From Candidatus Omnitrophota bacterium (GTDB lineage Bacteria > Omnitrophota > Gorgyraeia > Pluralincolimonadales > Pluralincolimonadaceae): DNA of 64,000 nucleotides. A program made the position numbers and the translations under genes. Within the stretch, counting starts at the first letter, position 1; every line of letters begins with the position of its first letter. Positions 24,959 to 45,213 of the stretch are shown one piece after another. Where the stretch lies: contig PLNR01000008.1 in NCBI GenBank assembly GCA_003141835.1, forward strand, positions 61,564 to 125,563. Reading direction: 5' to 3'. The notes under the pieces were generated by a model that saw only the letters and a program-made list of their open reading frames with translations, was not told where the DNA came from and did not search any database.

Positions 24959-24978
24959 AAGGGAAGGGCAAGGCTGAT

Positions 24979-25203
24979 ATGTGGTTTTTGCTGTTAATGC
25001 CCCTGGTTATCATGATAGCCGGCTTAGTGATATTCATTAAGCCGGCTTTTTGCATCGAATTCCAGAAGAAGTTCTACGCCAAAATTAATTGGCGCATGGA
25101 ACCCATTAATATGGAAATGGAGATCAGGAATACGAAAATCATGGGCTTGTTCCTGATTGGTGCCGCGATAGCAACGATTATCTATTTCTTAGTTAAGGGA
25201 TGA
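24979..25203 (+). CDS. small 2-TM membrane protein; duplicated as the C-terminus of 33437..34072
   Basis: 74 aa; about 80% nucleotide identity to 33860-34075. Confidence 0.5.
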   Translation: MWFLLLMPLVIMIAGLVIFIKPAFCIEFQKKFYAKINWRMEPINMEMEIRNTKIMGLFLIGAAIATIIYFLVKG

Positions 25204-28200
25204 TAATGAAAAAGGTCATCACCTACGTAGCGCTTACATTCCTTTTTATCGCAATACTGTCTTGTAGTTCCCTATTGTGTTGCCGCGCCTATTGTGCCGA
25301 TACCTGGTCATTCGCTGTCATAGGAGACACACGGGACAATGACCCAACTACTACAGGCGTGAGCCAATATCTGCCCGCGATAGCTTCTGCAATGGCCAAT
25401 CCTTCTTCTGTTATCTCCGGCGCAATTACGCCATCCGCGGCCTTCGTTAACGGCGATCTCGTAAACGGCGATAGCGCATTTTACCTCGACTACTCAACCC
25501 AATTCGCGAATTGGAAGACTGCCATGGCGCCACTTGGCAGCATACCCATATACACAGTGCGCGGCAATCACGAAAATGAAGTAACCGATTTATTGCCTAC
25601 GAGCGAAACCTTAAAGACGGCGTATTATAATGCCTTTGGGCCAACCGTTCCCCAGAACGGCCCGAATAACGGCCCAAATGATGACGAGGTGGGATTTACC
25701 TGGAACCTTTCCAGCCTTGACAGCCATATTAACCAAAAATATGTCCGCGTGATCGGGGTGGACCAATACTTTTATTATAATTCAACCGCGCAAGGCACTA
25801 GTCACTATTATCAGATAGACCAGGCGTGGCTGGATCAACAACTTATTCATTCGCCGCCCACGCGGTATACTTTCGTTATGGCTCATGAACCGTCATATTA
25901 TCTGGATAGCGGGGGCGACAATCCTGAGGGCGACTTTTATGGCACTACAAATCCGGATGGTAGTGCAAATCCGGCAGGGGTAGCTGCTCGCGGTGCATTC
26001 TGGAATTCCCTCGGCTCTAACGGCGTAAAGATGTATTTGTGTTGTCATGTGCACAATCTGCAGGTCGGCTATGCTTATGACAGCAATGGAAATAAAATTT
26101 ACCAGAACATGGCAGGTAATGGCGGCGCGCCGTTTGCATCGGCGGGCGCGACGGATCCAAACTTAACAGTCGCCTTTCAGGATTTTTCAGATTATGGATT
26201 TGCCCTTTATACGGTAACCAAAGATAACATCACTATTAACTATTACCTATACAATCCCACTTCGCTTACGTGGAGTATTTCTCCTTATTCCATTACCTTA
26301 GCGGCTGATCCCGTTAATACATGGAATACGACTTCAGGGAACTTTTCCACCGGTACCAATTGGGATATCGGCACTGCGCCGGGTGCAGGGGATACAGCGG
26401 TTTTCAACAACGGCGGCAGCGCGCCATCATCAGTTACTTTTGCGGACGGCAGCGCCACCACTAACAACAAATTGTTTGTAGCCAGCGGCGCGGTTACCTT
26501 CAACCTGGGAAACAACTCTTCATACACAGCAACTACCAGCGCAGCCATAGACGGCAGCTCGGATCCCACCTATCAGCCAAGCCTTGAGATAAAGGGAACC
26601 AATGGTTCAAGTTTTAATACGCCTTTACTGACGATGGACGGGGTTTCATCGTTTAAAGTGGATCCGGGAGCCTCTGCTACTTGCACTACAATTGATATTC
26701 AAGGCGGGACTGCCACTGTTGGAGGGGGAGGAGGTAATATAACGGTGACCAATCTTGTTGTTGACGGCGGCACCTTAGATATCCAATCGTTCGATCAGGC
26801 CGCCAACAATGTCCAGATGACCGGCGGCGCTATCACCGGTACAACTGGAATACTAACCAGCCTGAGTGCGTTCGATATGCAGGCAGGTACAGCCTCCGCC
26901 GTTCTCGCTGGTACGCATGGCCTGAATAAGACTACGGCCGGGACGGTGACGCTCTCCGGGGCCAACACATATTCAGGATTAACGACGATCTCCTCCGGCG
27001 CGTTATCCATTGCCGGCACGAATTCCTTGCCGGGTTGGAACACCAATGGCAGCTATAGTGTTGCCAATGGCGCGACTCTGGCGGTAGGGGATGGCGTGAG
27101 CGAAGCCAATGTTGGCGCCATTGGTACCCCACTCACCATACTAAACACTTCCAACTTCGCAGCCGGAGCGAACATAGGTTTAGATACCTCGGCAGGCAAC
27201 AGGAATTATGCTTCCGTTATCGGGAACACTTCGAACGGCGCGCTGGGTTTAACCAAGATAGGTACCAATACACTTACCCTTTCAGCCACTAACACCTACA
27301 CCGGCGCGACCACGCTGACGGCCGGCACGCTGAGCGCCGGCGCGACCGGAAACCTCGGCGCGGCGGCTTCCAACCTCGTCTTCAACGGCGGTACGCTGCA
27401 GATCACCGGTACGACTTTGACCAATATCTCGGGAATCGGACACACCGTCATAACCAATCCGGGTGAAACCGTCGGGCTGGATATCAACAATGCGGCCAAC
27501 ACATTCACATTCGATCAAGTCCTAAACCAGACGACCGGAGGCCTGACTAAATTGGGCGCGGGCACCTTGGTACTCAATAAAGCCAACACCTACACAGGAG
27601 CCACGACAGTCAGCGCAGGAACGTTACAAGCCGGAGTAGCCGCCCAGGCCTTTGGTAATAACTCGGTCGTGACTTTGAACAATACAGACGGAGGCGGCCT
27701 TAACCTTAATAACTTTAATAATACTATAGGTCCACTCAATGGTGTCGCAACCAGCACCGTCGTCCTCGGTTCAGGGACCCTTATGATCAGCGTCAACGCC
27801 GACACCGACAGAAGCGGTAACTATGTCGGTGTGATTTCAGGAACAGGCGGGCTGACTGTGGCAGGCACATACCCCGGCACACAAGTTTTAACGGGCGCCA
27901 ATTTGTATTCAGGCGTAACCACTATATCCGGCACAAGCACTCTCCAGATCGGTAACGCCGGGACAACAGGCACTCTAGGAACAGGTGCTGTAACAAACAA
28001 TGCTGGGTTGAAGTATAACCGGACTGATGTCGTACCGGCCATAACTAATGTTATCTCAGGAACAGGTACATTTGAACAAGCTGGGACCGGTACCGTAACT
28101 TTAAGAGGCAACAACACCTACACAGGAGCCACGATAGTCAGCGCCGGAACGCTGCAAGCGGATAATGATACTTACTTTGACTCTGTCAAAGGTGTTGGTT

Positions 28201-30011
28201 ATGGGGCTTTTGGTAATCTTTCGGCCGTGACGGTTGCAGTCGGAGCAACGCTGGATGGAAATGGTTATTACCATAATATAGGTTCACTTTCGGGGAGTGG
28301 TAAAGTGACTGAGAGCGATCCGGGCTTCCAATCATCTTTTGTTGTGGGCTGGGACAATTCTTCTACGACCTTTTCTGGAATTATAGAGGATGGCAATGGC
28401 CTAATCGACCTTACTAAAGATGGAAGCGGGACTTTTACTCTTACCGGTGCCAACACATATACCGGAGCTACCGCGATAAACGCAGGAACAGTGGTTGCCG
28501 GTAATGCCAATGCCCTCGGCAACGGATCGGCTGTTACTGTCGGGGCCGGCGGTACTCTCGACGTTGGCACCACCAATGTCACCGTTAATAATACCTATAC
28601 TCAGAACGGGACTCTAAAGGTGACCGTTGCGAGCCCGTCATCTTCCGGTAAGATAACATCCAACGCCAATGCATTTGTAGCCGCAACTAGCAGCGTCAAT
28701 GTCACTGTTGCAAACAGCACCTTCATCCCGAACAACACCACATACACGGTAGTAGACAGTTCAGGCGGAAACAACGTAAACGTCCCCGGCACGATCACAT
28801 CAAGCGATTCGCGTTTGACGTTCTCAGGCATAAGCTCAAACGGAGACCTCATTTTAACAGCTAGCCGCGCCGCAAACGGCTTCTCAAGCTTAGGCACGAA
28901 TTCTAACTCCTCTGCCGTTGGCGCTGTTTTAGATAACATCTCAGCCCCGTCCGGTGATATGTTAACCGTCTTAAATACGCTCGAAGGACTGAGCAATTCG
29001 CAGACAGAGTCAGCCCTTGCCACCTTAGTTCCTGTAGTCGACAGCGGAGTGACCAATGTCAGTAATACCGCCATCAACCAGTTCATGGGGACATCTACCG
29101 ACAGGCTAGGTGGCCTCTTCGCCCAGGCGCATAGCGAAGAGACCGGCGTCTCAACCGGAAGCAAGGGGAGCAGCGGTTTTGAGGCATGGGGCAGGGGATT
29201 CGGTGAATACGCCCACCAGGATCCCAGAGGGCTAAGCAACGGCTATCACGCCACTATCTGGGGCACGGCAATAGGAGCCGATATCCCAATCTTTAACGAC
29301 AAGGCCCGCATAGGCGCCGATGGCGGTTACGCCAGCAGCGGCGTAAATTCAAAAGATAACAGCGGTAAGACCTATATCGACAGCTACCAGTCAACCTTCT
29401 ATGGCGGCTTCACGGATCCCGAGAAACCCTACTACATAAACGGCGCCTTCTCCTTCGCCTATAACACATACAAGGGAAGAAGGAACATAGCCGTAGGCAC
29501 TATCACCAGGACCGCCAACGCAAACTATAAGGGCCAGCAATACTCCGTCTTATTCGACGGCGGATATATCTTTAAGACCAAACAAGTCAATATAACCCCC
29601 ATAGCCTCTATCCAGTACCTGCGCCTAAACCTCCATAGCTACACCGAGACGGGCGCAGATGCTCTCGATTTAAGTGTCAAAGGCCAGGGCTACAACCTAT
29701 TGGAATCCGGCCTGGGCGCAAAGTTCGACCGTCCATTTGAGGTCTCCTACGGCACTATAGCACCCGAGGTCCACGTCCGCTGGTTTTACGATATAATAAC
29801 CGATAAACAATCCACCACGTCTACCTTCGCAGGCGGCGGCGGTTCATTCGCCACCAACGGATTCAATCCCGCGCGCAACGCCTTAAATGTCGGGGGAAAA
29901 ATAGCCCTTCTCACAAAAGGCAACTGGAGCTTTGACGCCAATTACGACTTCGAATACAAACAGGACTTCACTTCCCATACGGGATGGGCGGATATCGCAT
30001 ATAAGTTTTAG
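25200..30011 (+). CDS. giant autotransporter: N-terminal calcineurin-like metallophosphoesterase domain, PATR repeats, C-terminal beta-barrel
   Basis: VRGNHEN and GDxVNGD metallophosphatase motifs; PATR units; C-terminal 520 aa ~87% identical to the preceding autotransporter. Confidence 0.75.
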   Translation: MIMKKVITYVALTFLFIAILSCSSLLCCRAYCADTWSFAVIGDTRDNDPTTTGVSQYLPAIASAMANPSSVISGAITPSAAFVNGDLVNGDSAFYLDYSTQFANWKTAMAPLGSIPIYTVRGNHENEVTDLLPTSETLKTAYYNAFGPTVPQNGPNNGPNDDEVGFTWNLSSLDSHINQKYVRVIGVDQYFYYNSTAQGTSHYYQIDQAWLDQQLIHSPPTRYTFVMAHEPSYYLDSGGDNPEGDFYGTTNPDGSANPAGVAARGAFWNSLGSNGVKMYLCCHVHNLQVGYAYDSNGNKIYQNMAGNGGAPFASAGATDPNLTVAFQDFSDYGFALYTVTKDNITINYYLYNPTSLTWSISPYSITLAADPVNTWNTTSGNFSTGTNWDIGTAPGAGDTAVFNNGGSAPSSVTFADGSATTNNKLFVASGAVTFNLGNNSSYTATTSAAIDGSSDPTYQPSLEIKGTNGSSFNTPLLTMDGVSSFKVDPGASATCTTIDIQGGTATVGGGGGNITVTNLVVDGGTLDIQSFDQAANNVQMTGGAITGTTGILTSLSAFDMQAGTASAVLAGTHGLNKTTAGTVTLSGANTYSGLTTISSGALSIAGTNSLPGWNTNGSYSVANGATLAVGDGVSEANVGAIGTPLTILNTSNFAAGANIGLDTSAGNRNYASVIGNTSNGALGLTKIGTNTLTLSATNTYTGATTLTAGTLSAGATGNLGAAASNLVFNGGTLQITGTTLTNISGIGHTVITNPGETVGLDINNAANTFTFDQVLNQTTGGLTKLGAGTLVLNKANTYTGATTVSAGTLQAGVAAQAFGNNSVVTLNNTDGGGLNLNNFNNTIGPLNGVATSTVVLGSGTLMISVNADTDRSGNYVGVISGTGGLTVAGTYPGTQVLTGANLYSGVTTISGTSTLQIGNAGTTGTLGTGAVTNNAGLKYNRTDVVPAITNVISGTGTFEQAGTGTVTLRGNNTYTGATIVSAGTLQADNDTYFDSVKGVGYGAFGNLSAVTVAVGATLDGNGYYHNIGSLSGSGKVTESDPGFQSSFVVGWDNSSTTFSGIIEDGNGLIDLTKDGSGTFTLTGANTYTGATAINAGTVVAGNANALGNGSAVTVGAGGTLDVGTTNVTVNNTYTQNGTLKVTVASPSSSGKITSNANAFVAATSSVNVTVANSTFIPNNTTYTVVDSSGGNNVNVPGTITSSDSRLTFSGISSNGDLILTASRAANGFSSLGTNSNSSAVGAVLDNISAPSGDMLTVLNTLEGLSNSQTESALATLVPVVDSGVTNVSNTAINQFMGTSTDRLGGLFAQAHSEETGVSTGSKGSSGFEAWGRGFGEYAHQDPRGLSNGYHATIWGTAIGADIPIFNDKARIGADGGYASSGVNSKDNSGKTYIDSYQSTFYGGFTDPEKPYYINGAFSFAYNTYKGRRNIAVGTITRTANANYKGQQYSVLFDGGYIFKTKQVNITPIASIQYLRLNLHSYTETGADALDLSVKGQGYNLLESGLGAKFDRPFEVSYGTIAPEVHVRWFYDIITDKQSTTSTFAGGGGSFATNGFNPARNALNVGGKIALLTKGNWSFDANYDFEYKQDFTSHTGWADIAYKF
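28440..30011 (+). repeat. ~1.57 kb repeat, copy 2 of the autotransporter C-terminal region (copy 1 at 23389..24958)
   Basis: Long colinear near-identical DNA, about 87-90% identity. Confidence 0.85.
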
Positions 30012-30034: not shown

Positions 30035-30364
30035 ATGAGGATCTGGGATATAGCGCCCGGAAGGTTATGCCGCAACCATCTCTTGGGCGAGCACAGGGAA
30101 CTCCACGCCATCTGGTCTGTCCTGACGCGCAACAAGAAGGGGTATTCCCGCCATCCCGAGACCTTAAGGTGGAAGGGCAGGTTAAAGGCGCTGTATTCAA
30201 GGCACACGAAGCTCGTCAACGAACTTAAACGGCGTGGCTACCTCCACCACAGCCCTCTTGATTCCCGGCTGGCGAAAGGGAAGGGGAGGCAGACGCGGTT
30301 CGTCAATTCAGTCGGCGAACAGATCAAGATTTTGAGCAGGAAAAACTGCGGCTGTAAGATTTAA
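30035..30364 (+). CDS. pyrimidine-dimer DNA glycosylase (T4 endonuclease V-like) family protein, putative
   Basis: N-terminal MRIWDIAPGRLCRNHLLGEHRELHAIW resembles T4 DenV MTRINLTLV...HLMAEYRELPRV. Confidence 0.5.
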   Translation: MRIWDIAPGRLCRNHLLGEHRELHAIWSVLTRNKKGYSRHPETLRWKGRLKALYSRHTKLVNELKRRGYLHHSPLDSRLAKGKGRQTRFVNSVGEQIKILSRKNCGCKI

Positions 30365-30377
30365 TAGGTAAGGCCAT

Positions 30378-30465
30378 TAAAATAATCATAACCCTCTGCG
30401 ATTATAACTGTTGCAGGGGATTTTTATTAAGAGTAGAATTAATCCTAACGAGGCGTTCCAAAGTT
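30378..30465 (+). repeat. direct repeat A (~85 bp, includes a terminator hairpin) after the glycosylase-like gene
   Basis: taaaataatcataaccctctgcgattataactgttgcaggggatttttattaagagtagaattaatcctaacgagg; about 92% identical to repeat B. Confidence 0.8.
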
Positions 30466-30520
30466 ACTCGCTCCAAGAATTAATTTCATTGGTTACGGAG
30501 AAGAGGAGATTTAGAAAATT

Positions 30521-31057
30521 ATGAAATACGTGACCGCTATGTTCGATTGGATAATGAGAAATAAGGAATGGATCTTTAGCGGTGTTGGAGTCGTGCTCAT
30601 AGGGTGGTTGGTCTTGGCGGTGCGCAGGTTTTTATTCATGCGACGAACTTCAAGTTCGTTGATTGAAGGGGCGACTCTTAGAGAAATAATCGAGAGTCCT
30701 GCGGTTGTGTCATCATCCGACATCGCCAACTTAACTTCTTCTCTTACCCCGAAGCAAATCATTGAAAATATAAAGGCTCTTCCGCTCCTCCAACAGCAGG
30801 ATGCCGGCAAACACTATATTGGTCTTGCTGTGAAATGGGATGGAGAGCTTGCCGATGCGAGGAAAATAGCTGAGAATTCGGTACAACTTTATATCTTACA
30901 CGGCTCAAGCAGTACAGGCTTTTTTTTAAAGGTTAACCCAAGCGACTATCCTGGGCTTAGTCTTCTAAAGAAAGGGGCTCATGTTGAGGTAGATGGCCTG
31001 ATTGAGGAAGCAGGAGCAATGTGGGTGACGCTTAATAACGCGCACATTCGCTTTTAG
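30521..31057 (+). CDS. hypothetical protein with N-terminal TM anchor
   Basis: 178 aa, low GC, one TM helix, then a soluble domain. Confidence 0.5.
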   Translation: MKYVTAMFDWIMRNKEWIFSGVGVVLIGWLVLAVRRFLFMRRTSSSLIEGATLREIIESPAVVSSSDIANLTSSLTPKQIIENIKALPLLQQQDAGKHYIGLAVKWDGELADARKIAENSVQLYILHGSSSTGFFLKVNPSDYPGLSLLKKGAHVEVDGLIEEAGAMWVTLNNAHIRF

Positions 31058-31087
31058 TATTTACTCAGCACATTATTTATGTAGGGC

Positions 31088-31150
31088 AATAAGGGACGTG
31101 TCAAAAAGGGACAGGTCGCATAAACAGAGTGTCCCAAAGTGACACGTCTC
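31088..31150 (+). promoter_or_regulatory. nested-palindrome leader element, copy 1
   Basis: GGACGTGTCA-aaaa-GGGACAG-N15-TGTCCC-aaag-TGACACGTC, preceded by TAATAAGG; ends about 35 nt before the RBS of 31187. Confidence 0.6.
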
Positions 31151-31186
31151 CGAAAAACCCATACCTTGGCATAAAGGAGGTGCTTA

Positions 31187-31591
31187 ATGAATATTCCGGA
31201 AAAAGAACAGTATAAATACCTTACTCACCATCTTGAATATCTTAATGATAAGATTCTAGGATCGTTTGAATTATTCATTAAACTCGCTACGGCAATTATC
31301 GGTGGTGTATTTCTTCTTCATTGGAAACTTGCAGAGAACCATAATAATGGAGATTCACTTGTTTTGATGTCTGATATGCTGTTTTGCATTGTCGGCGTAA
31401 GTATCATAGCCCTTATATGGATTAATCTTTGTGCTTGGCGATCATATCGAAAAACTCTCTCTAAAGAATATCCAGCTATTAAGCTTTCGAATCCTTTCTT
31501 ATGGTGGATAGGTGAAGCCATAATGAGTTTACTTATAATTATAACGTGTATATTATTTTGTCTCTTAAATCCTCTGAATAGTTTTTGTTAG
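31187..31591 (+). CDS. hypothetical multi-TM membrane protein
   Basis: 134 aa with 3 predicted TM helices. Confidence 0.5.
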   Translation: MNIPEKEQYKYLTHHLEYLNDKILGSFELFIKLATAIIGGVFLLHWKLAENHNNGDSLVLMSDMLFCIVGVSIIALIWINLCAWRSYRKTLSKEYPAIKLSNPFLWWIGEAIMSLLIIITCILFCLLNPLNSFC

Positions 31592-31595
31592 AGTA

Positions 31596-31658
31596 ATAAG
31601 GGGACGCGTCAAAAAGGGACAGGTTGCATAAGCAGAGTGTCCCAAAGTGACACGTCCC
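31596..31658 (+). promoter_or_regulatory. nested-palindrome leader element, copy 2
   Basis: One substitution relative to copy 1; precedes the RBS of 31694. Confidence 0.6.
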
Positions 31659-31693
31659 CAAACGCATAAAATCGCGCAAAAAGGGAGGTTGGA

Positions 31694-32287
31694 ATGAAAA
31701 GGGCGATAGTAATTTTTTTGGTAGCGTCATGTTTTCTTGAAGGTTGTGCATCTTATCATGCGGGGCTTTTGCCATCAAAAGATGTAATGAATTATGATAA
31801 TAAGCAAGTTCAAAATAACGTTTATGTCGTAGCAAAATTTTTGAATGCAAGAGAAACAAAACAAGTCTTTCAATTTGATCTAGAAAATAAGGGTATCCAG
31901 CCCACTTTTATTGTTATGGATAACAGAAGTCCTAAAACCTACGATTTCAAAAAATCAGACATAAATAAACAGATAATGTCTTCGCAAGAGGTAGCTGATA
32001 AATGCAAATTTAGTACTGTCGGACGAGCAACAACTTATGGAGTAGTGGGATTATTCATTTGGCCATTCTTAATTCCAGCAGTAGTCGATGGCGTAGGATC
32101 ATCGGAGGCGAACAGAAAAATTGAAGACGATTATGCTTATAAAGAATTGCAGGATGGAAGATTAATGCCAAATGCTCTCATGAACGGAGTTGTTTTCGTG
32201 TCTAAAATGAAAGAAGGAGAGGATTTTACCATAAGATTAAAAGATGTTGATACAAATGAAATTCTAAGATTTAGTTTTCAGAAGTGA
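31694..32287 (+). CDS. hypothetical lipoprotein
   Basis: Signal peptide with an FLEGC lipobox. Confidence 0.5.
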   Translation: MKRAIVIFLVASCFLEGCASYHAGLLPSKDVMNYDNKQVQNNVYVVAKFLNARETKQVFQFDLENKGIQPTFIVMDNRSPKTYDFKKSDINKQIMSSQEVADKCKFSTVGRATTYGVVGLFIWPFLIPAVVDGVGSSEANRKIEDDYAYKELQDGRLMPNALMNGVVFVSKMKEGEDFTIRLKDVDTNEILRFSFQK

Positions 32288-32335
32288 GTCACATTAGGTC
32301 GCATAAGCAGAGCGTCCTAAAGTGACACGTCCTCA
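32287..32335 (+). promoter_or_regulatory. nested-palindrome leader element, copy 3 (5' arm truncated)
   Basis: ggtcgcataagcagagcgtcctaaagtgacacgtcc matches the 3' half of copies 1 and 2. Confidence 0.5.
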
Positions 32336-32377
32336 AAATTAACCACGAAGAAACGCTATAATTAAAAGGTGTGAGAT

Positions 32378-33316
32378 ATGACTTTAATAATGTCAGCTAT
32401 TACCTCCTCGGGTATCGTTCTAACTGCCGATAGTAGACAGTCCTATAAAAATGGAGCAGGGGCAATTCGCATTGGTTCTGATAATGCATTGAAGCTTTTT
32501 AAGCTTTCCGATTATATTGGAGTTTCTATTTCAGGTAAAGCCTTTCTTAATGGGGAAAACCAATCGGTCAAAGACGTCGGATATTTTATTAATAAATTTA
32601 AACAAACAGAGGATCTAAAAGAACTAACAATCCGAGATGTTGCTAATAAACTAAATAAATATCTCGGTGACCTTTTTGTTGAGAAAGAAAGAGTATCTTT
32701 GAAAAAGCTTATTGAGGAACAAGTTACAAAGCTTGGTGGTAAAGATTTAGTTTTTCTTCCAATGGACGATTCTTTGGTTCCATATTCATATAAAGATAAG
32801 GACGGCAAGGTGATTTCAAATACAGCAATGATTGAGACAATTAATATGATTGTGGCAGGCATTGATAAGGACAAGGTAGGAAGAGCTTACTCAGTTTGGG
32901 TTCCTAAAGGGATAACGCTGGAAAAAGATACTCAGCTGTGCGGTGCTTTGTGGTGCGGTCAGAATGATGTTATCATTCGAATTGTCAAAGGATTTACACT
33001 GGAGATAGAAAAACTTAATTTTATAAAAGAGGCTCTAGCAAAAGATAACGCCTCAACTATCAGCCAGCTAAATAAAATGGAGTACATTATTAATTGGGGA
33101 ACAATGACCATCCAAGATGCGATAGATTTTTGCGTATTAATGACCCGTACTACCGAAAGCATACAGAGGTTTTCTGATGGTACCTTTTTACAACCTGGTG
33201 GTATTCCCGGCGTTGGTGGGGAGATTGATATAGCTGTTATTACACCTGAAAAAGGATTCCGTTGGCTTAAAAAGAAAAAATTGGAATCTGAGGGGGAAGA
33301 GCTTTCTTTAGAGTAA
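32378..33316 (+). CDS. proteasome-beta/HslV-like Ntn-hydrolase family protein with a C-terminal extension
   Basis: Thr directly after the initiator Met. GIVLTAD with Asp at position 17 of the Met-processed protein. KLFKLSDYIGVSISGKA parallels proteasome-beta KKIFKIDDHIGVAFAG. Confidence 0.5.
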   Translation: MTLIMSAITSSGIVLTADSRQSYKNGAGAIRIGSDNALKLFKLSDYIGVSISGKAFLNGENQSVKDVGYFINKFKQTEDLKELTIRDVANKLNKYLGDLFVEKERVSLKKLIEEQVTKLGGKDLVFLPMDDSLVPYSYKDKDGKVISNTAMIETINMIVAGIDKDKVGRAYSVWVPKGITLEKDTQLCGALWCGQNDVIIRIVKGFTLEIEKLNFIKEALAKDNASTISQLNKMEYIINWGTMTIQDAIDFCVLMTRTTESIQRFSDGTFLQPGGIPGVGGEIDIAVITPEKGFRWLKKKKLESEGEELSLE

Positions 33317-33363
33317 GAATGGAATATCAGCAAAATAGAATATAATAAGGAACGTGGGCGATA

Positions 33364-33430
33364 GGGGACGTGTCAAAAGGGCAAGGTCCCTTCGCAAAGG
33401 GAGACAGGTTATAAAAATGACACATGACAG
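33364..33430 (+). promoter_or_regulatory. nested-palindrome leader element, copy 4 (diverged)
   Basis: GGGGACGTGTCAAAAGGG ... TGACACATGACA, preceded by TATAATAAGG. Confidence 0.5.
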
Positions 33431-33436
33431 ATCTAA

Positions 33437-34072
33437 ATGAGTAAACCTGAAGAGGAATCAAGCGAAGTAAAAAATAGCAGCCGGAATATTCTTATACTTG
33501 ACGTATTGGGCATGGCTGTTATATTTATTCTTTTTATGATTGTTCGTGACAAATTTGGGCAAATTTTTAAAGAAATGGACGTGCCTGCAACGTTATCTTA
33601 TAGAATATTAATCGAACCCCACCCTGTCGTGCTTATTGTCGAATTCATTATAATCATAGCCATTCTCATTCTTAAAGAGAGAGTAATAAGGAATAAAAGC
33701 ATAACGTATTATATTAATAGCATAATTTTAGTAGTATTAGTTTTATCTATTCTCTTTTTCGGATATTCTGCTTTTTTCTTGCCCTTGATTCCTCTAATTA
33801 CGGAACTACAATCAAGGTCCAGTTTTTTCGATAAGTTCGGGTATCTTTTTAGTTATAATATAGTTGTTCCGTTAGTCATCTTAATAGCCGGCTTAATAAT
33901 ATTTATTAAGCCGGTTTCTTGTATCGAGCTCCAAAAAAAGTTTTACGAAAAGATCAACTGGCGCATGGAGCCGATCAATATGGAAATGGAGATCAGAAAT
34001 ACAAAAATCATGGGCTTATTTTTAGTCGGCGCATCCCTAGCAACAATTGTCTATTTTTTGATTAAAGGATAA
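33437..34072 (+). CDS. hypothetical multi-TM membrane protein; C-terminal 70 aa duplicate the 24979..25203 product
   Basis: 211 aa; C-terminal ...IFIKPVSCIELQKKFYEKINWRMEPINMEMEIRNTKIMGLF... Confidence 0.55.
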   Translation: MSKPEEESSEVKNSSRNILILDVLGMAVIFILFMIVRDKFGQIFKEMDVPATLSYRILIEPHPVVLIVEFIIIIAILILKERVIRNKSITYYINSIILVVLVLSILFFGYSAFFLPLIPLITELQSRSSFFDKFGYLFSYNIVVPLVILIAGLIIFIKPVSCIELQKKFYEKINWRMEPINMEMEIRNTKIMGLFLVGASLATIVYFLIKG

Positions 34073-34074
34073 TA

Positions 34075-34395
34075 ATGGAAAAAATTATTGGACAAGCGGG
34101 TAATCTAAACGATTTGGTAGCTTATCAGGAAGGCTCAATCGTAAGCAAAGAGATAATAAAAAAGGACATAGGCACGGTAACCCTTTTTGCCTTTGACAAG
34201 GGGCAGGGGTTGAGCGAACACACCGCGCCGTTTGATGCCCTGGTTTATATCTTTGACGGCGAAGCGGAAATAATGATTTCCGGCCTGCCACATCATTTAA
34301 AGGCAGGCGAGATCATCATAATGCCTGCGAATAAGCCGCACGCCTTAAAAGCGATAGAACGTTTCAAGATGATGCTGGTTATGATTAGGTCTTAA
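34075..34395 (+). CDS. cupin domain protein
   Basis: 106 aa small-barrel cupin pattern (G...H.H....E...V..G). Confidence 0.55.
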   Translation: MEKIIGQAGNLNDLVAYQEGSIVSKEIIKKDIGTVTLFAFDKGQGLSEHTAPFDALVYIFDGEAEIMISGLPHHLKAGEIIIMPANKPHALKAIERFKMMLVMIRS

Positions 34396-34407
34396 AGAGA
34401 AAAGTCT

Positions 34408-34495
34408 TAAAAATAATCATAACCCTCTGCAATTATAACTGTTGCAGAGGGTTTTTGTTAAGAGTAGAATAAATCCCAACGAGGTCTTACAAAGT
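34408..34495 (+). repeat. direct repeat B (~85 bp) with a perfect 10-bp-stem terminator hairpin
   Basis: CCCTCTGCAA-ttataact-gTTGCAGAGGG plus TTTTT, then ttaagagtagaataaatcccaacgagg. Confidence 0.8.
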
Positions 34496-34525
34496 GGCGC
34501 ATATTCAAAACCATAAGCGTGCTTA

Positions 34526-35248
34526 ATGTTGAGAGTGCCCCGATTTTTAAATAGACTTGCAATTGGTTTTAATAGTGATAGAATCAAAGAAAAAGGAGCA
34601 CAGATGGGCGTCAAGAAGAATTTATGGTTGTTTGTATTTAATGTTGTCTGCCTAGTTATTGCTATTGTTTTGTGTAGTGGGTTTATGTATTATTTTTGCG
34701 TAGCGAACCCATCTAACATTGTTTATGCAAAAGAAGATAGTTCCGCGGAGAAGGTTGAATTAAATAAACAGGAAATTAGTAAATTACAGAAGGATGATTT
34801 AAGTAATCAGGACTCTAAACAATCGGCAGTTGTTGAGGAGAAAACCGATAAGACTACGGTTTCCCTCGTTTTAAATAAAGAGAATGAAGCAATTATAAAA
34901 AATATGGAACGACGTAATAGTTTTCTCGAATTTTATATAGGGCAGATTATAAGCTTTTATCAACAAGTTATTACTTATTTATTAGGAGTAATTGGTGTTT
35001 TATTAGTCATCAGCTTTATGTATATACGTTTTACGTCTAAGCAACAAACTGAGGAGATGGCAAATGAAGCATTGAACTCAAAATCCTTCCAGATAATTCT
35101 ACAAAATCTGGTTAAGAAAGAATATGCTGAAGCGTTAAAATCAGGTGATTTTGTGGAAATGTCTAGTAAAATACCTGATTTAGCTGATAGGGTAACTGAG
35201 CTTGAGAAGATAATGAACGCAAAAGATGATGATGAAATTCAGGAATAG
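34526..35248 (+). CDS. hypothetical membrane protein with coiled-coil segments
   Basis: Two TM helices and K/E-rich regions. Confidence 0.45.
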   Translation: MLRVPRFLNRLAIGFNSDRIKEKGAQMGVKKNLWLFVFNVVCLVIAIVLCSGFMYYFCVANPSNIVYAKEDSSAEKVELNKQEISKLQKDDLSNQDSKQSAVVEEKTDKTTVSLVLNKENEAIIKNMERRNSFLEFYIGQIISFYQQVITYLLGVIGVLLVISFMYIRFTSKQQTEEMANEALNSKSFQIILQNLVKKEYAEALKSGDFVEMSSKIPDLADRVTELEKIMNAKDDDEIQE

Positions 35249-35257
35249 GGGTGAAAA

Positions 35258-35812
35258 ATGGGAATAATTAGAGAGAAATGTTTTGCTCCTGACTGTTCTA
35301 TCGCATCTAGCAATATTGATTTATATGATACTCCGGAGAAATTATTTGCTTTTGCAAGTTCTCAAGGCATTCCTACTGTGCCTTTAGACGTAGAGAAATT
35401 AGCCAATAAAATGGGTATCAAAATAGAATACGCTGATTTTCCAAATGATTTATCGGGGGAACTTATCAAGGATCCGGCAACTAATCATTGGGTTATCTAT
35501 GTGAATAAAAATCATCATATTAATAGGCAAAGATATACTATCGCACATGAAATAGCTCATTTTTGTCAGCACAGGCACTTGAAATATAGATTTGAAGACG
35601 AAATATTTTTTAGGGGTGGTGAATCATACGACAAGGAAGAAACGGAAGCAAATAATTTCGCTAGTTCTATACTTATGCCAGAACAAGAATTTAAAACTAA
35701 AGTTCGTTCGGGAATTAGGAAAATAGAAGAATTAGCTGGGATATTTAAGGTCTCAACCTTAGCCCTAAGAATAAGGGCAAAAAATCTCGGCATGTCAGGA
35801 CACGGGTTATGA
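35258..35812 (+). CDS. ImmA/IrrE family metallo-endopeptidase
   Basis: HEXXH at IAHEIAHF with the downstream Glu typical of COG2856; ATGA overlap with the next gene. Confidence 0.75.
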   Translation: MGIIREKCFAPDCSIASSNIDLYDTPEKLFAFASSQGIPTVPLDVEKLANKMGIKIEYADFPNDLSGELIKDPATNHWVIYVNKNHHINRQRYTIAHEIAHFCQHRHLKYRFEDEIFFRGGESYDKEETEANNFASSILMPEQEFKTKVRSGIRKIEELAGIFKVSTLALRIRAKNLGMSGHGL

Positions 35813-36894
35813 AGAATATATCATATGCTCCGATAATAAAAACTAGTGATGCGGAAATCAGGGGGATTGAAAACCTTGATGATGACGATAAGGATGGAAT
35901 TACTCCAATTTTTGAATTGACAAAATCAAGAAAATCAAAATATCTTCCTCAGGGTGATATATATAGAAGGCTAGAAAAGCTTAAAGATGTATTTGGTGCT
36001 AGGCGTTTCATATTAGATTTAACAAGTGATCGTAATTCTATAAATGAACAAATTGAAGAATTGCAAGATAATCATGGCGGATATAAAAATTGGATTGATT
36101 TCCTAATTTTGCAAAAGAATGATTTTCCTGAATTAATACCAACAATACAGATTACTGATAAGGGAGTTAAGACTGAAGAAGAATTGTATAATAGAGTTAA
36201 GGTACAGGTTGAAGCGTTAAACAGGAATTTTGCCGAAGTTGCTTACAGGTTTCCTTTGGAATATGAAGATTTTACGACCGACCTCAAGCATATAATTGAT
36301 AATATCTCTAAAGATAAAATTATTTGTATCGTTGATGCTGGATTCATTACGCAAGGGAAATCAGGAATCTATATAACAAAAGCAAGGAGTGTTATTGCAG
36401 AAGTAAAAAAATTTGGGATTAAAAATATAATATTATCAGCTACTTCCTTTCCAAGGAATCCGACTCAATACGGCGGTGAGGAGACAGGAGAGTGCCAATT
36501 AGAAGAGTGTTTATTTTATAATGGCGCAAGAGAAGAAAAATCTAATATCAGTTTTATCTATGGAGATTATGCCACGATTAATCCGATAAGAAGCGATCAA
36601 GCAGGTGGCAATGGATGGGTTCCGAGAATAGATATGCCTACAGAAGATGAACTTTTTTATTATAGATCTAGAAAACGCAAGCAAGAATTGACATATGCTA
36701 ACGCTTATACAAGAGTCGCACACTCTGTGGCTAGCGACCAAAGATATAAAAATATAAAGAAAAAAATCAGGGATTGCTGGGGAATTGAGCAGATTGAATT
36801 AGCCGCAAAAGGCACCCCAGAAGGATTATCACCATCCTTCTGGATCTCAGTTAGAATGAACATCCACATAACAATAAAAAATAAAATGCATTAA
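35809..36894 (+). CDS. Beta family protein (T4 beta-protein-like; sce7725-like)
   Basis: N-terminal YAPIIKTSDAEIRGIENL...ITPIFELTKSR and RRFILDL fit my recollection of the Beta_protein N-terminal pattern; 361 aa. Confidence 0.55.
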   Translation: MKNISYAPIIKTSDAEIRGIENLDDDDKDGITPIFELTKSRKSKYLPQGDIYRRLEKLKDVFGARRFILDLTSDRNSINEQIEELQDNHGGYKNWIDFLILQKNDFPELIPTIQITDKGVKTEEELYNRVKVQVEALNRNFAEVAYRFPLEYEDFTTDLKHIIDNISKDKIICIVDAGFITQGKSGIYITKARSVIAEVKKFGIKNIILSATSFPRNPTQYGGEETGECQLEECLFYNGAREEKSNISFIYGDYATINPIRSDQAGGNGWVPRIDMPTEDELFYYRSRKRKQELTYANAYTRVAHSVASDQRYKNIKKKIRDCWGIEQIELAAKGTPEGLSPSFWISVRMNIHITIKNKMH

Positions 36895-37523
36895 ACATAT
36901 AACTTATCAATTATTCCGCATAAACCTCGTAAATCATCCCATACGATTTTTCCTTCGGTATCCCTCAAGAGAAGCCTAAAAAGTTTATAGTAACGTTTCT
37001 TAAGATATGAATAAGCAGCTGTGCGGATTTTACTTGTGGTCAGCTGGTGGCTAAGCTTTTCCCGTATTTCATCTGTAGATAGCTTTCGGATATTTCTTGA
37101 GGTGCATAGGCTGAGCAGTTCAATCTTAGGCAAGAATATCAAAAGAGAACGCTTATCCAATTTTTTATTTAATCTCGCTATTTTTATAACCTTAAATTTA
37201 TCGTTATTAAATAGAATTAGTCCGGTGTTTTGAGTAATAATATTTTTAATCTTGTTAACATTCTTTATAGTGGTTATTACAGATACTTTGTCAAATGTAT
37301 TATGATAATCGTTTAGCTGCATTTTAAGTTTTCTTGGATCGTCAGAATCACTTTTTATTTCAAGGGTATGTGTTTTGTTTGAAATAATTAATAAGTCGGC
37401 TTTTCGCCTATTAGCAGAAAACAAAACTTCAGTAGCAATAGCATCCTTCGACTTATTAAAATTAAGATTGCCCCTTAATAACCATCTTATTGCTTTTGTT
37501 TTTATTAGTTCTGCTTTATCCAT
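36891..37523 (-). CDS. sce7726-like putative PD-(D/E)xK nuclease-fold protein
   Basis: RKADLLIIS...LEIKSDSD D-(x)n-E-x-K pattern; convergent with the Beta gene, stops overlapping by 4 bp. Confidence 0.5.
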   Translation of the reverse strand: MDKAELIKTKAIRWLLRGNLNFNKSKDAIATEVLFSANRRKADLLIISNKTHTLEIKSDSDDPRKLKMQLNDYHNTFDKVSVITTIKNVNKIKNIITQNTGLILFNNDKFKVIKIARLNKKLDKRSLLIFLPKIELLSLCTSRNIRKLSTDEIREKLSHQLTTSKIRTAAYSYLKKRYYKLFRLLLRDTEGKIVWDDLRGLCGIIDKLYV

Positions 37524-38134
37524 AGTTAAATGTTATCTCGCAATAATATAAAAATAATACGATCGAATATCCTTGTTGTATTTTTTGTTTTTTTAGTAAC
37601 CGATATTATACTTTAATTTAATAAAATATTCACTACAAGAGGTAATTGTGATGGTAGGCTACCTGCAATGTGTTAGTCCCAAAGGTCAAATGCATAATCT
37701 TGTGAGAATAAAGTTGTTTAAGAACAGGGCGCCGATAGTAAGAGCTAAGTTACCTTATGCCTTCACAAAGAAGTGAAAGCACTTGGCGTTCTTAGGGTAG
37801 ATTACTCTACCGTTCCGCCGAATGTATCGGCAGTACACCTCAACGCCAGGAGTTAATCCCGAACCGCGGTTATCCCGCTTTTCAGCATTAAACCTTCGTT
37901 GCATACTTTTGTCTCCTTTCCGGGGGCTAATTTTTACCTTACGCAACCCCTCAAAAAGAAGAAAATAAGATTAAGAAAATGATTTCAGGAGGGGGGTAAG
38001 TAGGAAATTAGCCTAGAAAAGAAGACATCGTAGCCCCGGAGATTTTGCTCCTTAGTTTGTCCTACCGGCACCCAAAGAACAAGTTTCTATGCTATAAATA
38101 CTACAAATTAGTCGTAAAGTCAATCTAAAAATTC

Positions 38135-38163
38135 TTGACACCCACACAAATGTGTGGTATACT
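38135..38163 (+). promoter_or_regulatory. lexA promoter TTGACA-17-TATACT with a CCACACA-aa-TGTGTGG palindrome in the spacer (candidate SOS box)
   Basis: Consensus -35, perfect 7-bp inverted repeat at 38142-38157, -10 ending 7 nt before the ATG at 38171. Confidence 0.55.
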
Positions 38164-38170
38164 CCTGCCT

Positions 38171-38719
38171 ATGAAACCCCAAGTAGAATTAACCGCCAAG
38201 CAAGAGAAGGTCCTGAAATTTATCCGCGAAAGAGTGGGGGAGAACCTGCCTCCGACCATAAGGGAGATAGCAGGGGAGATGGGCTTTGCTTCCACAGGAA
38301 CGGTTAGGGATTATCTTGCGGCGCTTCAAAGAAAGGGTTACCTCAAACGCGAAAATAACAAATCCCGGGGCATAGCGTTAATAGGAAGTATTGCGGCCGG
38401 GGAGCCGAAATTGGCCTATGAAGATATCGAGGGCTATGTCGAGATCGCCCGGGAGAATACCTTTGCCTTGAAGGTCAAAGGCGAAAGCATGATAGACGCC
38501 GGCATTATGGACGGCGACATAGCGGTCATCAGGAAACAGAAGACGGCCGATAACGGCGATATCATCGCCGCGTTACTGGACAATAACGAAGTCACCTTAA
38601 AAAGACTCAAGACCGGCGGCGGCAAGCCATTCCTGGAAGCAGCGAACAAGAAATATCCCCCGATACATAAAGAATTCAGCATCATAGGCAAACTTGTCAA
38701 TATAGTAAGAAAATATTAA
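38171..38719 (+). CDS. lexA: LexA repressor
   Basis: N-terminal wHTH (MKPQVELTAKQEKVLKFIRE), S24 peptidase GESM Ser and downstream Lys; start moved to a typical LexA Met. Confidence 0.85.
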   Translation: MKPQVELTAKQEKVLKFIRERVGENLPPTIREIAGEMGFASTGTVRDYLAALQRKGYLKRENNKSRGIALIGSIAAGEPKLAYEDIEGYVEIARENTFALKVKGESMIDAGIMDGDIAVIRKQKTADNGDIIAALLDNNEVTLKRLKTGGGKPFLEAANKKYPPIHKEFSIIGKLVNIVRKY

Positions 38720-39055: not shown

Positions 39056-40227
39056 TCCTGCACATAGACATGGACGCTTTTTTCGCGTCCGTTGAACAGG
39101 CCATCAACCCGCGGCTTAAAGGCAAGCCCCTGATAGTGGGCACGCGCGAAAGGAAGCTCCACACGGTCGTTTGCGCGGCCAGTTATGAAGCCAAGGCCTT
39201 AGGGATAGGCTCAGGGATGTCTTCTGAGGAGGCCTTTAAAATATGCCCGGACCTCAATTTTGTCCCGGCAGAACAAAGCAAGTATATATGGACCTCGGGC
39301 CGGATATTGGAGCTCATCAAGGGATACGGGTTCGAGACCGTATATGTTTCGATAGATGAGTTCCAAATTGATGTAGGGGATCAGGGACAGTCCCCAAATG
39401 GGGGCTGTCCCTCTTACGCCGTGGCTTTGGCCGAAGATATCCGCAGCAAAATACACAAAAACTTCAACATCACAGCTTCCGTAGGCATAGCGAAAAATTG
39501 CCTCCTTGCCAAACTCGCCTCAAAGTTAAACAAGCCAAACGGTGTAGCTGTTTTGACCGAAGCCAATTTAGCCGAAATTTTGGCCAAAACACCGGTCGAA
39601 AAATTATGCGGGGTGGGGGAAAAGACAGCCGAAATCTTCCATGATTTGGGCATCAAAACCTGCCTGGACCTGTACGCCAAAACGCCCAAATTCCTGGAGC
39701 GGAATTTAGGCAAGAACGGGCTCAATCTTTACGCGTCTTTGCATTCCGAAGAGTCGCTTGAGCCGGCTGATGATGACCCGGATCCAAAATCCGTAGGCCA
39801 TTCATATACCTTGCCGAGATCCACAGAAAATCCCGGGTTTATCCGCGCCTGGATACGCCTTTTGGCCGATATGGTCGGTGAGCGCCTAAGGCAGCAAGGC
39901 CTGGCAGCAGCGACAACACACCTATGGCTGAACGGGCCAAAAATAGGCAATTTTGGGGCCCAAAAGACATTCCCGGAAGCCACTAATGACGGCTGTGAGA
40001 TATTCCGGAGAGTACTTGTTAATATGTCCAAATTAGGGCCGCAAACGCCCAAAACAAGAGCTTTAGGCGTAACCTGCAGTAGTTTCACACATACCAGGTA
40101 TTTGCCTTTATTTGACCAACAGAAGAGCCGGGAATCGCTCCTGGAGGCGGTAGACAGGATCAATGACCGCTACGGAGACGGCTCGATTTATCCCGCCGCG
40201 ATCACTTTAACCAGGGAAATGCCTTAA
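39052..40227 (+). CDS. dinB: Y-family DNA polymerase IV
   Basis: MILHIDMDAFFASVEQ with catalytic Asp pair; SIDE catalytic Glu. Confidence 0.8.
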   Translation: MILHIDMDAFFASVEQAINPRLKGKPLIVGTRERKLHTVVCAASYEAKALGIGSGMSSEEAFKICPDLNFVPAEQSKYIWTSGRILELIKGYGFETVYVSIDEFQIDVGDQGQSPNGGCPSYAVALAEDIRSKIHKNFNITASVGIAKNCLLAKLASKLNKPNGVAVLTEANLAEILAKTPVEKLCGVGEKTAEIFHDLGIKTCLDLYAKTPKFLERNLGKNGLNLYASLHSEESLEPADDDPDPKSVGHSYTLPRSTENPGFIRAWIRLLADMVGERLRQQGLAAATTHLWLNGPKIGNFGAQKTFPEATNDGCEIFRRVLVNMSKLGPQTPKTRALGVTCSSFTHTRYLPLFDQQKSRESLLEAVDRINDRYGDGSIYPAAITLTREMP

Positions 40228-40295
40228 GCATAATCAAAAATAGTTGAAAGTTTTTTCCCTCTTTTAGCGTCTATAGAATTAAAGGAGGGTTTTTC

Positions 40296-40814
40296 ATGGG
40301 TAAGTTGATTATACATAAGGTAATAGAACAGAAGATATTCGTAATAAGGGGAAAGAAAGTAATCGTTGATAGGGACCTGGCTGAGCTTTACGGAGTAGAA
40401 ACAAAGCACTTAAATAGACAGGTAAGGAGAAATATCGACCGTTTTCCAGAAGAGTTCATGTTTCAACTTACCGAGAACGAGAAAAAGGAACTGGTGACAA
40501 ATTGGCACCAGTTTAAGCCATTAAAGCATTCATACGTGCTGCCATATGCTTTTACGGAACATGGAGTAACTATGGCGGCTATGGTATTAAACAGCGACAC
40601 GGCCATAAGGGTAAGTGTTTTTATAGTAAAGACTTTTATCAAACTCCGCGAGATTATCGCCACTCAGAAGGAATTAATGACTAAGTTCGGCGAGCTTGAG
40701 CTAAGGGTAGATAAGCATGACAAAGATATCTTAAATCTGATCAGAGTCATCAAAGAGTTATTAGAGCCGAAATTCGAGGAAAAGCCGAGGCGGAAGATAG
40801 GGTTTTATCCCTAA
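40296..40814 (+). CDS. ORF6N (KilA-N-like) domain DNA-binding protein
   Basis: IRGKKVIVDRDLAELYGVETKHLNRQVRRNIDRFPEEFMFQLT and LPYAFTEHGVTMAA match the ORF6N consensus. Confidence 0.75.
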   Translation: MGKLIIHKVIEQKIFVIRGKKVIVDRDLAELYGVETKHLNRQVRRNIDRFPEEFMFQLTENEKKELVTNWHQFKPLKHSYVLPYAFTEHGVTMAAMVLNSDTAIRVSVFIVKTFIKLREIIATQKELMTKFGELELRVDKHDKDILNLIRVIKELLEPKFEEKPRRKIGFYP

Positions 40815-43416: not shown

Positions 43417-43538
43417 TTGATTAAAAGTATATACGTTATTTCATTGCCTGTCAATGGGTTGTGTCTCATGCGGTCCATGCCTGCTCCGCAAATAACCCCC
43501 CCGGGATTAAAACCCCGGGGGTTTTTGCCTGACTGATG

Positions 43539-45131: not shown

Positions 45132-45213
45132 TGTGGATCTCCTTGGTTAAGTAATATTATGAATGATTTTAGCAGCTTCCGGCGTTTTAAGTTCATCACC
45201 CTCCTTTCTTATC

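Follow-up and report, generated by a model that had tools for sequence, protein, structure and literature searches.

What do two copies of a short hairpin-bearing repeat mark in the chromosome of a Candidatus Omnitrophota bacterium? The copies, A and B, lie in direct orientation at a distance of 4031 bp in a 64-kb stretch of DNA (the window, by which we mean the whole stretch analysed). The window consists of chromosomal housekeeping genes with a GC content of ~51%, interrupted by a trough of ~35% GC at 30.4-38.0 kb in which nearly all open reading frames (ORFs) are on the plus strand. To the left of the trough are two PATR autotransporters and a pyrimidine-dimer glycosylase gene (pdg), and to the right are lexA, a small ORF and a Y-family polymerase gene; the region lies between DNA-repair genes (pdg on the left, lexA on the right). 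A preliminary description had A and B delimit a single ~4-kb cassette. Comparison with related contigs points instead to two adjacent variable slots split by a conserved cupin gene, of which A and B appear to be the old, conserved left boundaries. We suggest that A and B are paralogous ~95-nt intergenic modules, here termed Y, specific to one Candidatus Omnitrophota clade, and that core genes here flank a defence hotspot whose slot boundaries bear copies of a terminator/promoter-like module. We assign this reading a probability of about 0.5.

Self-comparison of the window aligns 30361-30464 with 34392-34495 at 84% identity over 104 nt without gaps. Over the core of the repeat (30379-30465 and 34410-34496) there are 9 differences in ~87 nt, or ~90% identity, close to the ~92% reported previously. 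Both copies are AT-rich, like the island. The terminator hairpins described earlier, perfect in B and degenerate in A, were confirmed by folding, with B having been placed 1 nt off. Copy B (34402-34498, plus strand), in what appears to be the native position of Y 3' of the cupin gene, has its hairpin at 34421-34453, with a perfect stem of 12-13 bp followed by TTTTTG (RNA fold -21.1 kcal/mol, z = -6.4). Copy A (30370-30474, plus strand) has its hairpin at 30393-30419, with a 10-bp stem that includes G-U pairs followed by ATTTTTATT (RNA fold -15.0 kcal/mol, z = -3.4). A terminator scan lists both, and each combines a hairpin and a T tract downstream of a stop codon, as expected of the intrinsic terminators they are predicted to be. 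Promoter-like hexamers are present on the plus strand, TTGCAG and TAGAAT with 17 nt between them, at 30411-30416 and 30434-30439 in A and at 34442-34447 and 34465-34470 in B. The 3' end of Y is a degenerate right half of a palindrome (pal, described below); the resemblance is significant in window A, where it occupies 30455-30474, and on contig L020, and weaker in B and the other copies. The 19-mer TTAAGAGTAGAATNAATCC, with up to 3 mismatches, matches only the A and B sites in 64 kb. No third copy was found in the window by Smith-Waterman search of both strands, and no Y remnant was found in 37.4-38.2 kb. Promoter-like sites also occur on the minus strand, TTAACA-18-TATAAT in B (34432-34461) and TTAATA-18-TATAAT in A (30401-30430); their -10 element is the invariant hairpin loop, and a transcript would run antisense into cupin or pdg.

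The repeats are not a private local duplication, as copies of Y lie beside variable content on related contigs. Scanning metagenomes with the half of the repeat that holds the hairpin recovered two contigs, and more were reached via homologues of the cupin (related or homologue-bearing contigs are designated by L-numbers and P0123). The resulting alignment holds nine distinct copies of Y from five lineages and at least four genomic contexts. Its invariant core is AATCATAACCCT.T.CAATTATAA...TTGC.G..GG...G.GTA.AAT, in which four elements are invariant: AATCATAA as the left flank, ATTATAA as the loop, TTGC.G within the 3' stem, and G.GTA.AAT. The ~70-nt block, including the loop, is 76-96% identical behind unrelated genes (pdg, cupin, a PEP-CTERM gene and a 57-aa ORF), which argues for a repeat family and not for convergent terminators. 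Similarity stops 10-35 nt past TAGAAT in every context, with unrelated cargo beyond, and immediately to the right of every Y copy found, on any contig, is low-GC cargo composed mostly of defence genes. The earlier expectation that the repeats flank other variable segments is therefore borne out on related Omnitrophota contigs, where the genes to the right differ. The cupin-linked copies are best conserved (90-96%), and orthologues of copy B were identified at L020 10523-10600 (89%) and L021 9823-9915. Window A is closest to window B (91%, versus 76% to its positional counterpart in L021), which suggests exchange between copies within one genome, or repeated copying from the cupin-linked copy. 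A scan of representative genomes with TTAAGAGTAGAATNAATCC returned nine matches, all attributable to chance (29-41 of 88 positions identical to the repeat), and two scans of viral contigs returned zero. Rfam contained nothing for Y or pal, except for a sub-threshold match to BTnc005 driven by the terminator. Contigs L034 (686-835) and L035 (379-458) encode an identical cupin protein; Y of L034 is broken by a ~55-nt insertion, absent from L035, that brings two extra hairpins and, 17 nt upstream of TAGAAT, restores the hexamer TTGTAG.

The relatives have a backbone in common, pdg-[slot 1]-cupin-[slot 2]-lexA. Contig L021 (GCA_023227985.1), of a metagenome-assembled genome, is syntenic with the window, with 86-90% nucleotide identity in backbone genes, and carries Y after both pdg and cupin. 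Its order is PEP-CTERM gene, autotransporter, 144-aa ORF, pdg, Y, EcoRI methylase and GmrSD/HNH genes, left half of pal, cupin, Y, a 178-aa ORF with AbiC and UvrD-DarT-DarG genes, and lexA. Since both Y positions are occupied in L021 with other cargo to their right, the A/B duplication is probably old, and not a recent attL/attR pair. On L020 and L024-33 (lexA region 87% identical) the order is left half of pal, cupin1, Y, a 57-aa ORF with PIN-TPR-GreABC, left half of pal, cupin2, a 169-aa ORF and lexA. Contig P0123, for which the gene table was used, encodes a cupin 88% identical at the protein level, followed by N6 methylase, SIR2 and GmrSD genes and then lexA. The slots are flanked by pdg, cupin and lexA in the window and L021, and by cupin and lexA in L024-33 and P0123; Y follows cupin in two further lineages besides L021. 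Four different cargo sets were seen in slot 2 and two in slot 1. Across the loci, the defence families in cargo include PD-Lambda-2-like/CapP/Beta protein, sce7726, EcoRI methylase, GmrSD, AbiC, DarTG, SIR2, PIN-TPR-GreABC, DUF4145 and AbiE.

The same repeats occur at a third locus. On L019, a PEP-CTERM gene (75% identical) is followed by a 1.1-kb low-GC insert with the order Y, 57-aa ORF, Y, DUF4145 gene and a pal-like sequence, and then by a gene for an OLD-like ATPase at host GC. At the corresponding PEP-CTERM position, Y is absent from both the window and L021. In relatives with cupins 75-83% identical to that of the window at the nucleotide level, cargo again adjoins cupin genes: genes for Band7 and HD proteins lie between two cupins (L036-38) or the order is AbiE-cupin-pdg-cupin (L039). 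Both Y and pal are absent from these contigs, which indicates that the repeats are confined to a narrow clade. Tandem cupins bracket cargo at L024 6550-10321 (PIN-TPR-GreABC) and L036 6290-8321 (Band7 and HD), and at L039 10001-10982 it is pdg that sits between two cupins. The proposal of variable content at a preferred site is thus retained; A and B do not represent a fresh target duplication around one cassette.

The preliminary description counted the autotransporter, the glycosylase and the cupin as cargo, and here we place all of them in the backbone. Direct counterparts of autotransporter 1 (AT1, 22124-24958), pdg and cupin are present in L021. Autotransporter 2 (AT2, 25200-30011, plus strand, GC 0.52, with metallophosphatase, PATR and beta-barrel matches in Pfam) is in tandem with AT1, also of PATR type, and is a backbone-type extra paralogue of it at host GC; L021 has just one autotransporter, with 81% identity to AT1 and 76% to AT2. 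The tandem pair (22124-30011) shares internal repeats that are 85-100% identical, and a small ORF, X (see below), lies between the two genes. At that position L021 has one autotransporter and the 144-aa ORF, which was considered as a relative of X and of ORF5 in slot 1 and proved unrelated on comparison. The left backbone gene of slot 1, pdg (30035-30364, plus strand), encodes a pyrimidine-dimer DNA glycosylase (Pyr_excise, E = 1e-26) and has 87% nucleotide identity to L021 6568-6901. The cupin gene (34075-34395, plus strand; Cupin_2) is the anchor between slots 1 and 2. Its nucleotide identity to orthologues is 85-90%, the same level as lexA, and its GC (0.44) and third-codon-position GC (GC3, 0.51) are near those of the backbone; on the basis of GC and conservation we consider it a backbone gene. 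The source names on the cupin matches are Candidatus Omnitrophota. This cupin family is very abundant, with ~8000 matches at E <= 1e-20, many of them 75-92% identical.

On the right, similarity to relatives restarts at 38125, just before lexA (38135-38719 including its promoter TTGACA-17-TATACT, plus strand), the right backbone gene of slot 2. The palindrome CCACACAAATGTGTGG is located in the spacer of the lexA promoter (window 38135-38163, L021 15456-15484, L020 6600-6630); being kept in relatives, it is likely the LexA operator of this lineage. Most cargo in the window, L021 and L024 has a GC of 0.30-0.40 (ORF1 of the window is 0.46), versus 0.44-0.55 for the backbone. In L021 and L024 alone the backbone values are 0.46-0.55 and the cargo values 0.30-0.40. 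In the window, ORF2-5 and the slot 2 genes have GC of 0.33-0.37.

Slot 1 of the window contains five co-oriented ORFs on the plus strand, none matched to recognised defence families. ORF1 (30521-31057; 178 aa) has an N-terminal transmembrane segment and no family match. ORF2 (31187-31591; 134 aa; GC 0.33) encodes a membrane protein, ORF3 (31694-32287; 197 aa; GC 0.35) a lipoprotein-like protein, and ORF4 (32378-33316; 312 aa) a weakly proteasome-beta/Ntn-like protein with 619 homologues. ORF5 (33437-34072; 211 aa) encodes a membrane protein and adjoins the cupin start directly, in place of the left half of pal seen in relatives (L021, L024). An ORF of 178 aa comes after Y in both the window and L021, and another neighbours ORF4 on L010; they were considered as homologues and share only their length.

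ORF4 appears to behave as a gene-sized, single-gene mobile unit. Nucleotide homology of 81-89%, confined to the ORF +/-20 nt, was found in four unrelated defence-island contexts (L010, L016, L017 and L018). These loci do not share pal, and the homology ends 24-44 nt short of the pal copies in the window. The neighbours of ORF4 elsewhere are a Z1/DUF4420/Dcm-Vsr-HNH cluster, a caspase-helicase accompanied by the S subunit of a restriction-modification (RM) system, AbiC, and type I RM genes together with an OLD-type ATPase. A search of PDB sequences with ORF4 returned nothing meaningful. We regard ORF4 as a candidate new anti-phage gene. Its closest retrievable homologue is on contig L017, which has a ~75-nt repeat of its own, AAAATAGGGGACAGG...CTGTCCCCAAAG, at 1747-1819 and 2590-2663, after two successive ORFs; the repeat resembles inner pal, and the palindrome there reads GGGGACAGG...CTGTCCCC.

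Slot 2 of the window contains a PD-Lambda-2-like set on the plus strand (34605-36894) that comprises a transmembrane coiled-coil protein, a CapP-like ImmA/IrrE peptidase (35258-35812) and a Beta_protein (35809-36894). Convergent with this trio is a sce7726-family gene on the minus strand (36891-37523; NCBIfam NF033832, E = 5e-30; PADLOC 'cll'). The right end of the slot is a ~600-nt non-coding segment (37524-38124) between the sce7726 gene and the lexA promoter, in which GC climbs from ~37640. The spacer at 37.5-38.1 kb showed no similarity to any fetched locus or to Rfam. Within it is a 63-aa minus-strand ORF (37755-37946) rich in basic residues.

The palindrome pal, overlooked in the preliminary description, is ~60 nt long and follows each of ORF1-ORF4, within 31.09-33.43 kb. 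Its general form is GGGGACGTGTCA-AAAA-GGGACA...TGTCCC-AAAG-TGACACGTCCCC, which folds into outer and inner stems of 12 and 6 bp on either side of a 4x4 internal loop, with four GGGAC-type boxes. Copy 1 (31092-31151) reads GGGACGTGTCA-AAAA-GGGACA...TGTCCC-AAAG-TGACACGTCTCC (RNA fold -29.4 kcal/mol, z = -7.9), and copy 2 (31600-31659) is 92% identical to it (RNA fold -36.4 kcal/mol, z = -9.0); the corresponding DNA folds have z = -5.0 and -6.9. In copy 3 (32288-32334) the right half is intact and the left half replaced, with the hairpin kept in a shifted register (RNA z = -4.1). Copy 4 (33364-33425) keeps an intact left half and has a degenerate right half. All four are on the plus strand, and no copies were found elsewhere in the 64-kb window. 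Covariation, with four copies and one compensatory pair, is too thin to be used as support. In relatives (L021, L024) the left half of pal lies immediately before the cupin start codon, and a right half ends Y; together these suggest that the ancestral unit was pal left half-cupin-Y-pal right half. The free copies in slot 1 of the window are both halves joined by a 14-nt loop.

Fragments of pal were also identified in other positions. A 30-nt left half lies in frame within an FGGY (glycerol-kinase-like) ORF at L021 255-284 (minus strand), with 25 nt identical to a window copy, and encodes ...LSNLSLFDTSLCFGT...; either a small mobile element inserted into coding sequence or a chimeric assembly might explain it. 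A 23-nt mini-pal, GGGGACGTGTCACTTGGGGACAC, follows the stop codon of the Y-family polymerase gene at L020 4554-4579 and L024 12906-12931, and is absent from the window at 40227-40296.

In our preferred reading, Y is a terminator hairpin with a conserved loop, followed by promoter-like hexamers and a degenerate pal half, and its native place would be the 3' flank of the conserved small cupin gene. The hotspot of this clade would have the order pdg-Y-[slot 1]-(pal left half)-cupin-Y-[slot 2]-lexA, with a different low-GC anti-phage set in every relative. Y is predicted to end transcripts of the upstream core gene (pdg or cupin). It probably also provides the transcription start for the downstream cargo, because conservation stops at about the predicted +1. 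Cargo would most likely be swapped when the conserved flanks (pdg/Y, pal-cupin-Y and the lexA promoter) recombine homologously with DNA from relatives. Crossover between Y copies or cupin copies, unequal or of Campbell type, could yield duplications such as cupin1/cupin2 and A/B, and Y and pal may occasionally travel with cargo to new sites. As for pal itself, it appears to behave like a hairpin of the repetitive extragenic palindromic (REP) type or of the type of MITEs (miniature transposable elements with inverted repeats).

Several points weigh against this reading. The case for promoter activity in Y is a consensus match: the plus-strand -35 hexamer matches at 3 of 6 positions, which makes the promoter reading weak, and the site is not listed by a promoter scan that lists a stronger minus-strand match within Y. 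Recombination in the flanks leaves unaccounted for the arrival of Y and pal at the L019 locus, as well as the presence of pal after four successive cargo ORFs and nowhere else in 64 kb. Copies of Y and pal were counted in the window and the fetched related loci, and only a handful of relatives were compared.

[quoted passage not shown] We consider this unlikely. The mini-pal present in L024 and absent from the window, the double-hairpin insertion in Y of L034 that L035 lacks, and the in-frame pal half in the FGGY ORF of L021 are all consistent with small repeats that come and go, and hairpins of great stability lying between genes that are co-transcribed are reminiscent of REP elements. However, both repeats are confined to the hotspot within the 64-kb window, and every Y copy found adjoins low-GC cargo. 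There are no evident target-site duplications around the pal copies, which have 12-nt inverted ends and no flanking direct repeat, and Y has no terminal inverted repeats.

It is also conceivable, and in our view quite improbable, that the locus is an integron-like platform for site-specific recombination. Y would be a promoter and primary insertion site at its 3' end, pal an attC-like junction site, and each cassette would consist of pal right half, leader, ORF and pal left half, with the recombinase encoded elsewhere in the genome. Y and pal would then be cis sites of an undescribed gene-capture system of Omnitrophota, its recombinase acting in trans and its cassettes, of one gene or an operon, placed downstream of the Y platform. 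We hold this doubtful, and no less so the further idea that each junction would rebuild a folded four-box palindrome (GGGGACG and GGGACAG boxes), an analogue of integrons without the IntI/attC consensus. Were it true, a capture system would stock anti-phage genes beside genes of the SOS regulon.

Much of the architecture fits such a platform. Five co-oriented ORFs follow Y copy A, the first four junctions each have a ~60-nt bipartite hairpin, and Y terminates in a degenerate pal right half. The last cargo gene of L021 and L024 ends in a pal left half beside cupin, and the L019 insert begins with Y and ends with a pal-like sequence. ORF4 is a single-gene unit in unrelated contexts, the palindrome of L017 follows two successive ORFs, and copy 3 of pal retains its hairpin despite a different left-arm sequence. 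Other evidence weighs against it. No integrase, resolvase, transposase or Phage_integrase domains were identified with Pfam among all ORFs of 20.7-51.6 kb and most ORFs longer than ~175 aa elsewhere in the window; the ORFs screened thus include no tyrosine recombinase and also no Y1 transposase. We agree with the preliminary description that classical attC cores are absent: the outer boxes of pal are GGGGACGTGTCA and TGACACGTCCCC, RYYYAAC and GTTRRRY cores are lacking, and there is no AAC...GTT pair at the stem ends. The palindrome was not transferred together with ORF4, and the multi-gene cargo of L021 has no internal pal. In relatives, cupin and Y lie between the pal halves, which is not an outcome expected of integron recombination at R', and the pal fragments inside the FGGY kinase ORF and after the polymerase gene look like a small mobile repeat.

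The preliminary description also noted a duplicated 5' module, and the duplication is real. X (24979-25203, plus strand) is a 74-aa ORF upstream of AT2 that encodes a small membrane protein with a weak DUF6199 match, and it is paralogous to the C-terminus of ORF5. By self-comparison of the window, 25006-25213 and 33875-34082 are 79% identical over 208 nt (reported earlier as ~80%), covering nearly all of X and the last ~70 codons of ORF5 (X'). The codon differences are 27 synonymous and 18 non-synonymous and fall mostly at third positions, and GC3 is 0.61 in X versus 0.44 in X'. This pattern suggests an old duplication with both copies under selection, so that X and X' are best described as old paralogues, or xenologues, under purifying selection. 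Similarity runs ~10 nt beyond the stop codons (TAATGRAAAA). As the same stretch is the native cupin start in orthologues, it may be microhomology and not part of the duplication, and could mark where X' joined cupin and replaced the left half of pal. A search of 5.8 billion protein clusters with ORF5 found only ORF5 itself, and X is likewise without a match elsewhere. Neither X nor X' is present in L021, L024 or L039, where slots of the same kind occur. The module is restricted to this genome, and X is therefore not a general cassette boundary, as had been proposed.

These results bear on the strict form of the original model, in which a ~4-kb circle (ORF1-5 and cupin) integrated at Y, with A and B as attL and attR, or cassettes of the form X-cargo-Y share their modules. 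The 4031-bp spacing of two direct repeats as AT-rich as the island, the same order and orientation of X...A and X'...B, the closer similarity of window A to window B than to other copies, and the tandem cupins on either side of cargo in L024 and L036, an arrangement expected from a Campbell-type crossover, are all compatible with it. Nevertheless, we regard it as very unlikely. L021 has both Y positions with different cargo, which largely refutes the model. Moreover, A and B differ at ~10% of positions, cupin belongs to the backbone by GC and conservation, X and X' have no homologue elsewhere, are absent from relatives and diverge mostly at third positions as expected of an old duplication, and no integrase was found in the ORFs screened. 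That the repeats result from chance or from faulty assembly is extremely improbable. The sequence probably comes from a metagenome-assembled genome, and such genomes can carry collapsed or chimeric repeats, but the same repeats and synteny recur in independent assemblies from NCBI, ENA and JGI, and the core motif is expected only 0.06 times by chance.

Elsewhere in the window, 43490-45208 and 47499-49296 form another duplication at ~4-kb spacing (83-94% identical). It consists of a pair of paralogous porin genes of the Alginate_exp type (530 and 539 aa, both on the minus strand) that flank a GH57 gene.

Defence hotspots flanked by core genes are already known, and how cargo enters and leaves them without mobile-element genes is poorly understood. 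This locus provides short conserved landmarks at cargo boundaries in a poorly studied, uncultured phylum, in a pattern that recurs at an independent locus, and thus concrete sites for the study of recombination, termination and promoter activity. The cupin-Y pair is also a simple search handle for new defence genes in Omnitrophota metagenomes, the recurrent proteasome-like ORF4 being one candidate.

How do these features compare with known systems? An integrative element would have an integrase and identical core repeats around one foreign segment; here no integrase was found in the ORFs screened, A and B differ at ~10% of positions, and a backbone gene, cupin, lies between them. An ordinary terminator followed by the next promoter is similar in having a G+C-rich hairpin and T tract after a stop codon and then -35/-10-like hexamers; here, by contrast, the entire ~70-nt block, including the loop, is copied behind unrelated genes. 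REP elements are treated alongside MITEs as small intergenic repeats in reviews (PMC3184786, PMC10969869). Like REP elements, bacterial interspersed mosaic elements (BIMEs) and bacterial MITEs such as the Correia elements of Neisseria, the repeats described here are short extragenic palindromes with strong RNA hairpins between genes, and they show presence/absence polymorphism (mini-pal of L024, Y insertion of L034, FGGY pal half of L021). Some of those elements have promoter or terminator activity, and in-frame insertions into genes occur (PMC3184786, PMC10969869). In contrast to them, no target-site duplication was seen here, nor a REP-associated tyrosine transposase (RAYT) gene or other transposase in the ORFs screened, and in the window the repeats are limited to the hotspot.

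In architecture, the closest known systems are chromosomal integrons and clusters of attC sites lacking integron-integrases (CALINs). Shared features are promoter-proximal, co-oriented, mostly single-gene units with ~60-nt bipartite imperfect palindromes between them that are homogeneous within the array, and ORF1-ORF4 with pal form such an array, each ORF being followed by an imperfect bipartite palindrome of ~60 nt (57-141 nt, with an unpaired central spacer, in integron arrays). The differences are that IntI was not found in the ORFs screened (a CALIN needs none) and the R''/R' consensus is absent, that the palindrome does not move with ORF4, the one traceable cassette-like gene, and that relatives have a core gene and Y between the palindrome halves. 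Integron cassettes are known to carry defence genes; no account of integrons or attC in Omnitrophica turned up when we searched the literature.

In concept, the closest match is the core defence hotspot, exemplified by cDHS1/2 of Pseudomonas aeruginosa (PMC10250203) and the defence-island hotspots of E. coli (PMC10121019). As in those hotspots, a fixed site between conserved genes holds differing anti-phage systems of atypical GC, and no mobile-element genes are needed. The Omnitrophota locus differs in having two adjacent slots split by a small cupin gene, each of which opens with the same ~95-nt repeat, in having a palindrome at right edges and internal junctions, and in the use of the same repeats to bracket cargo at a third locus.

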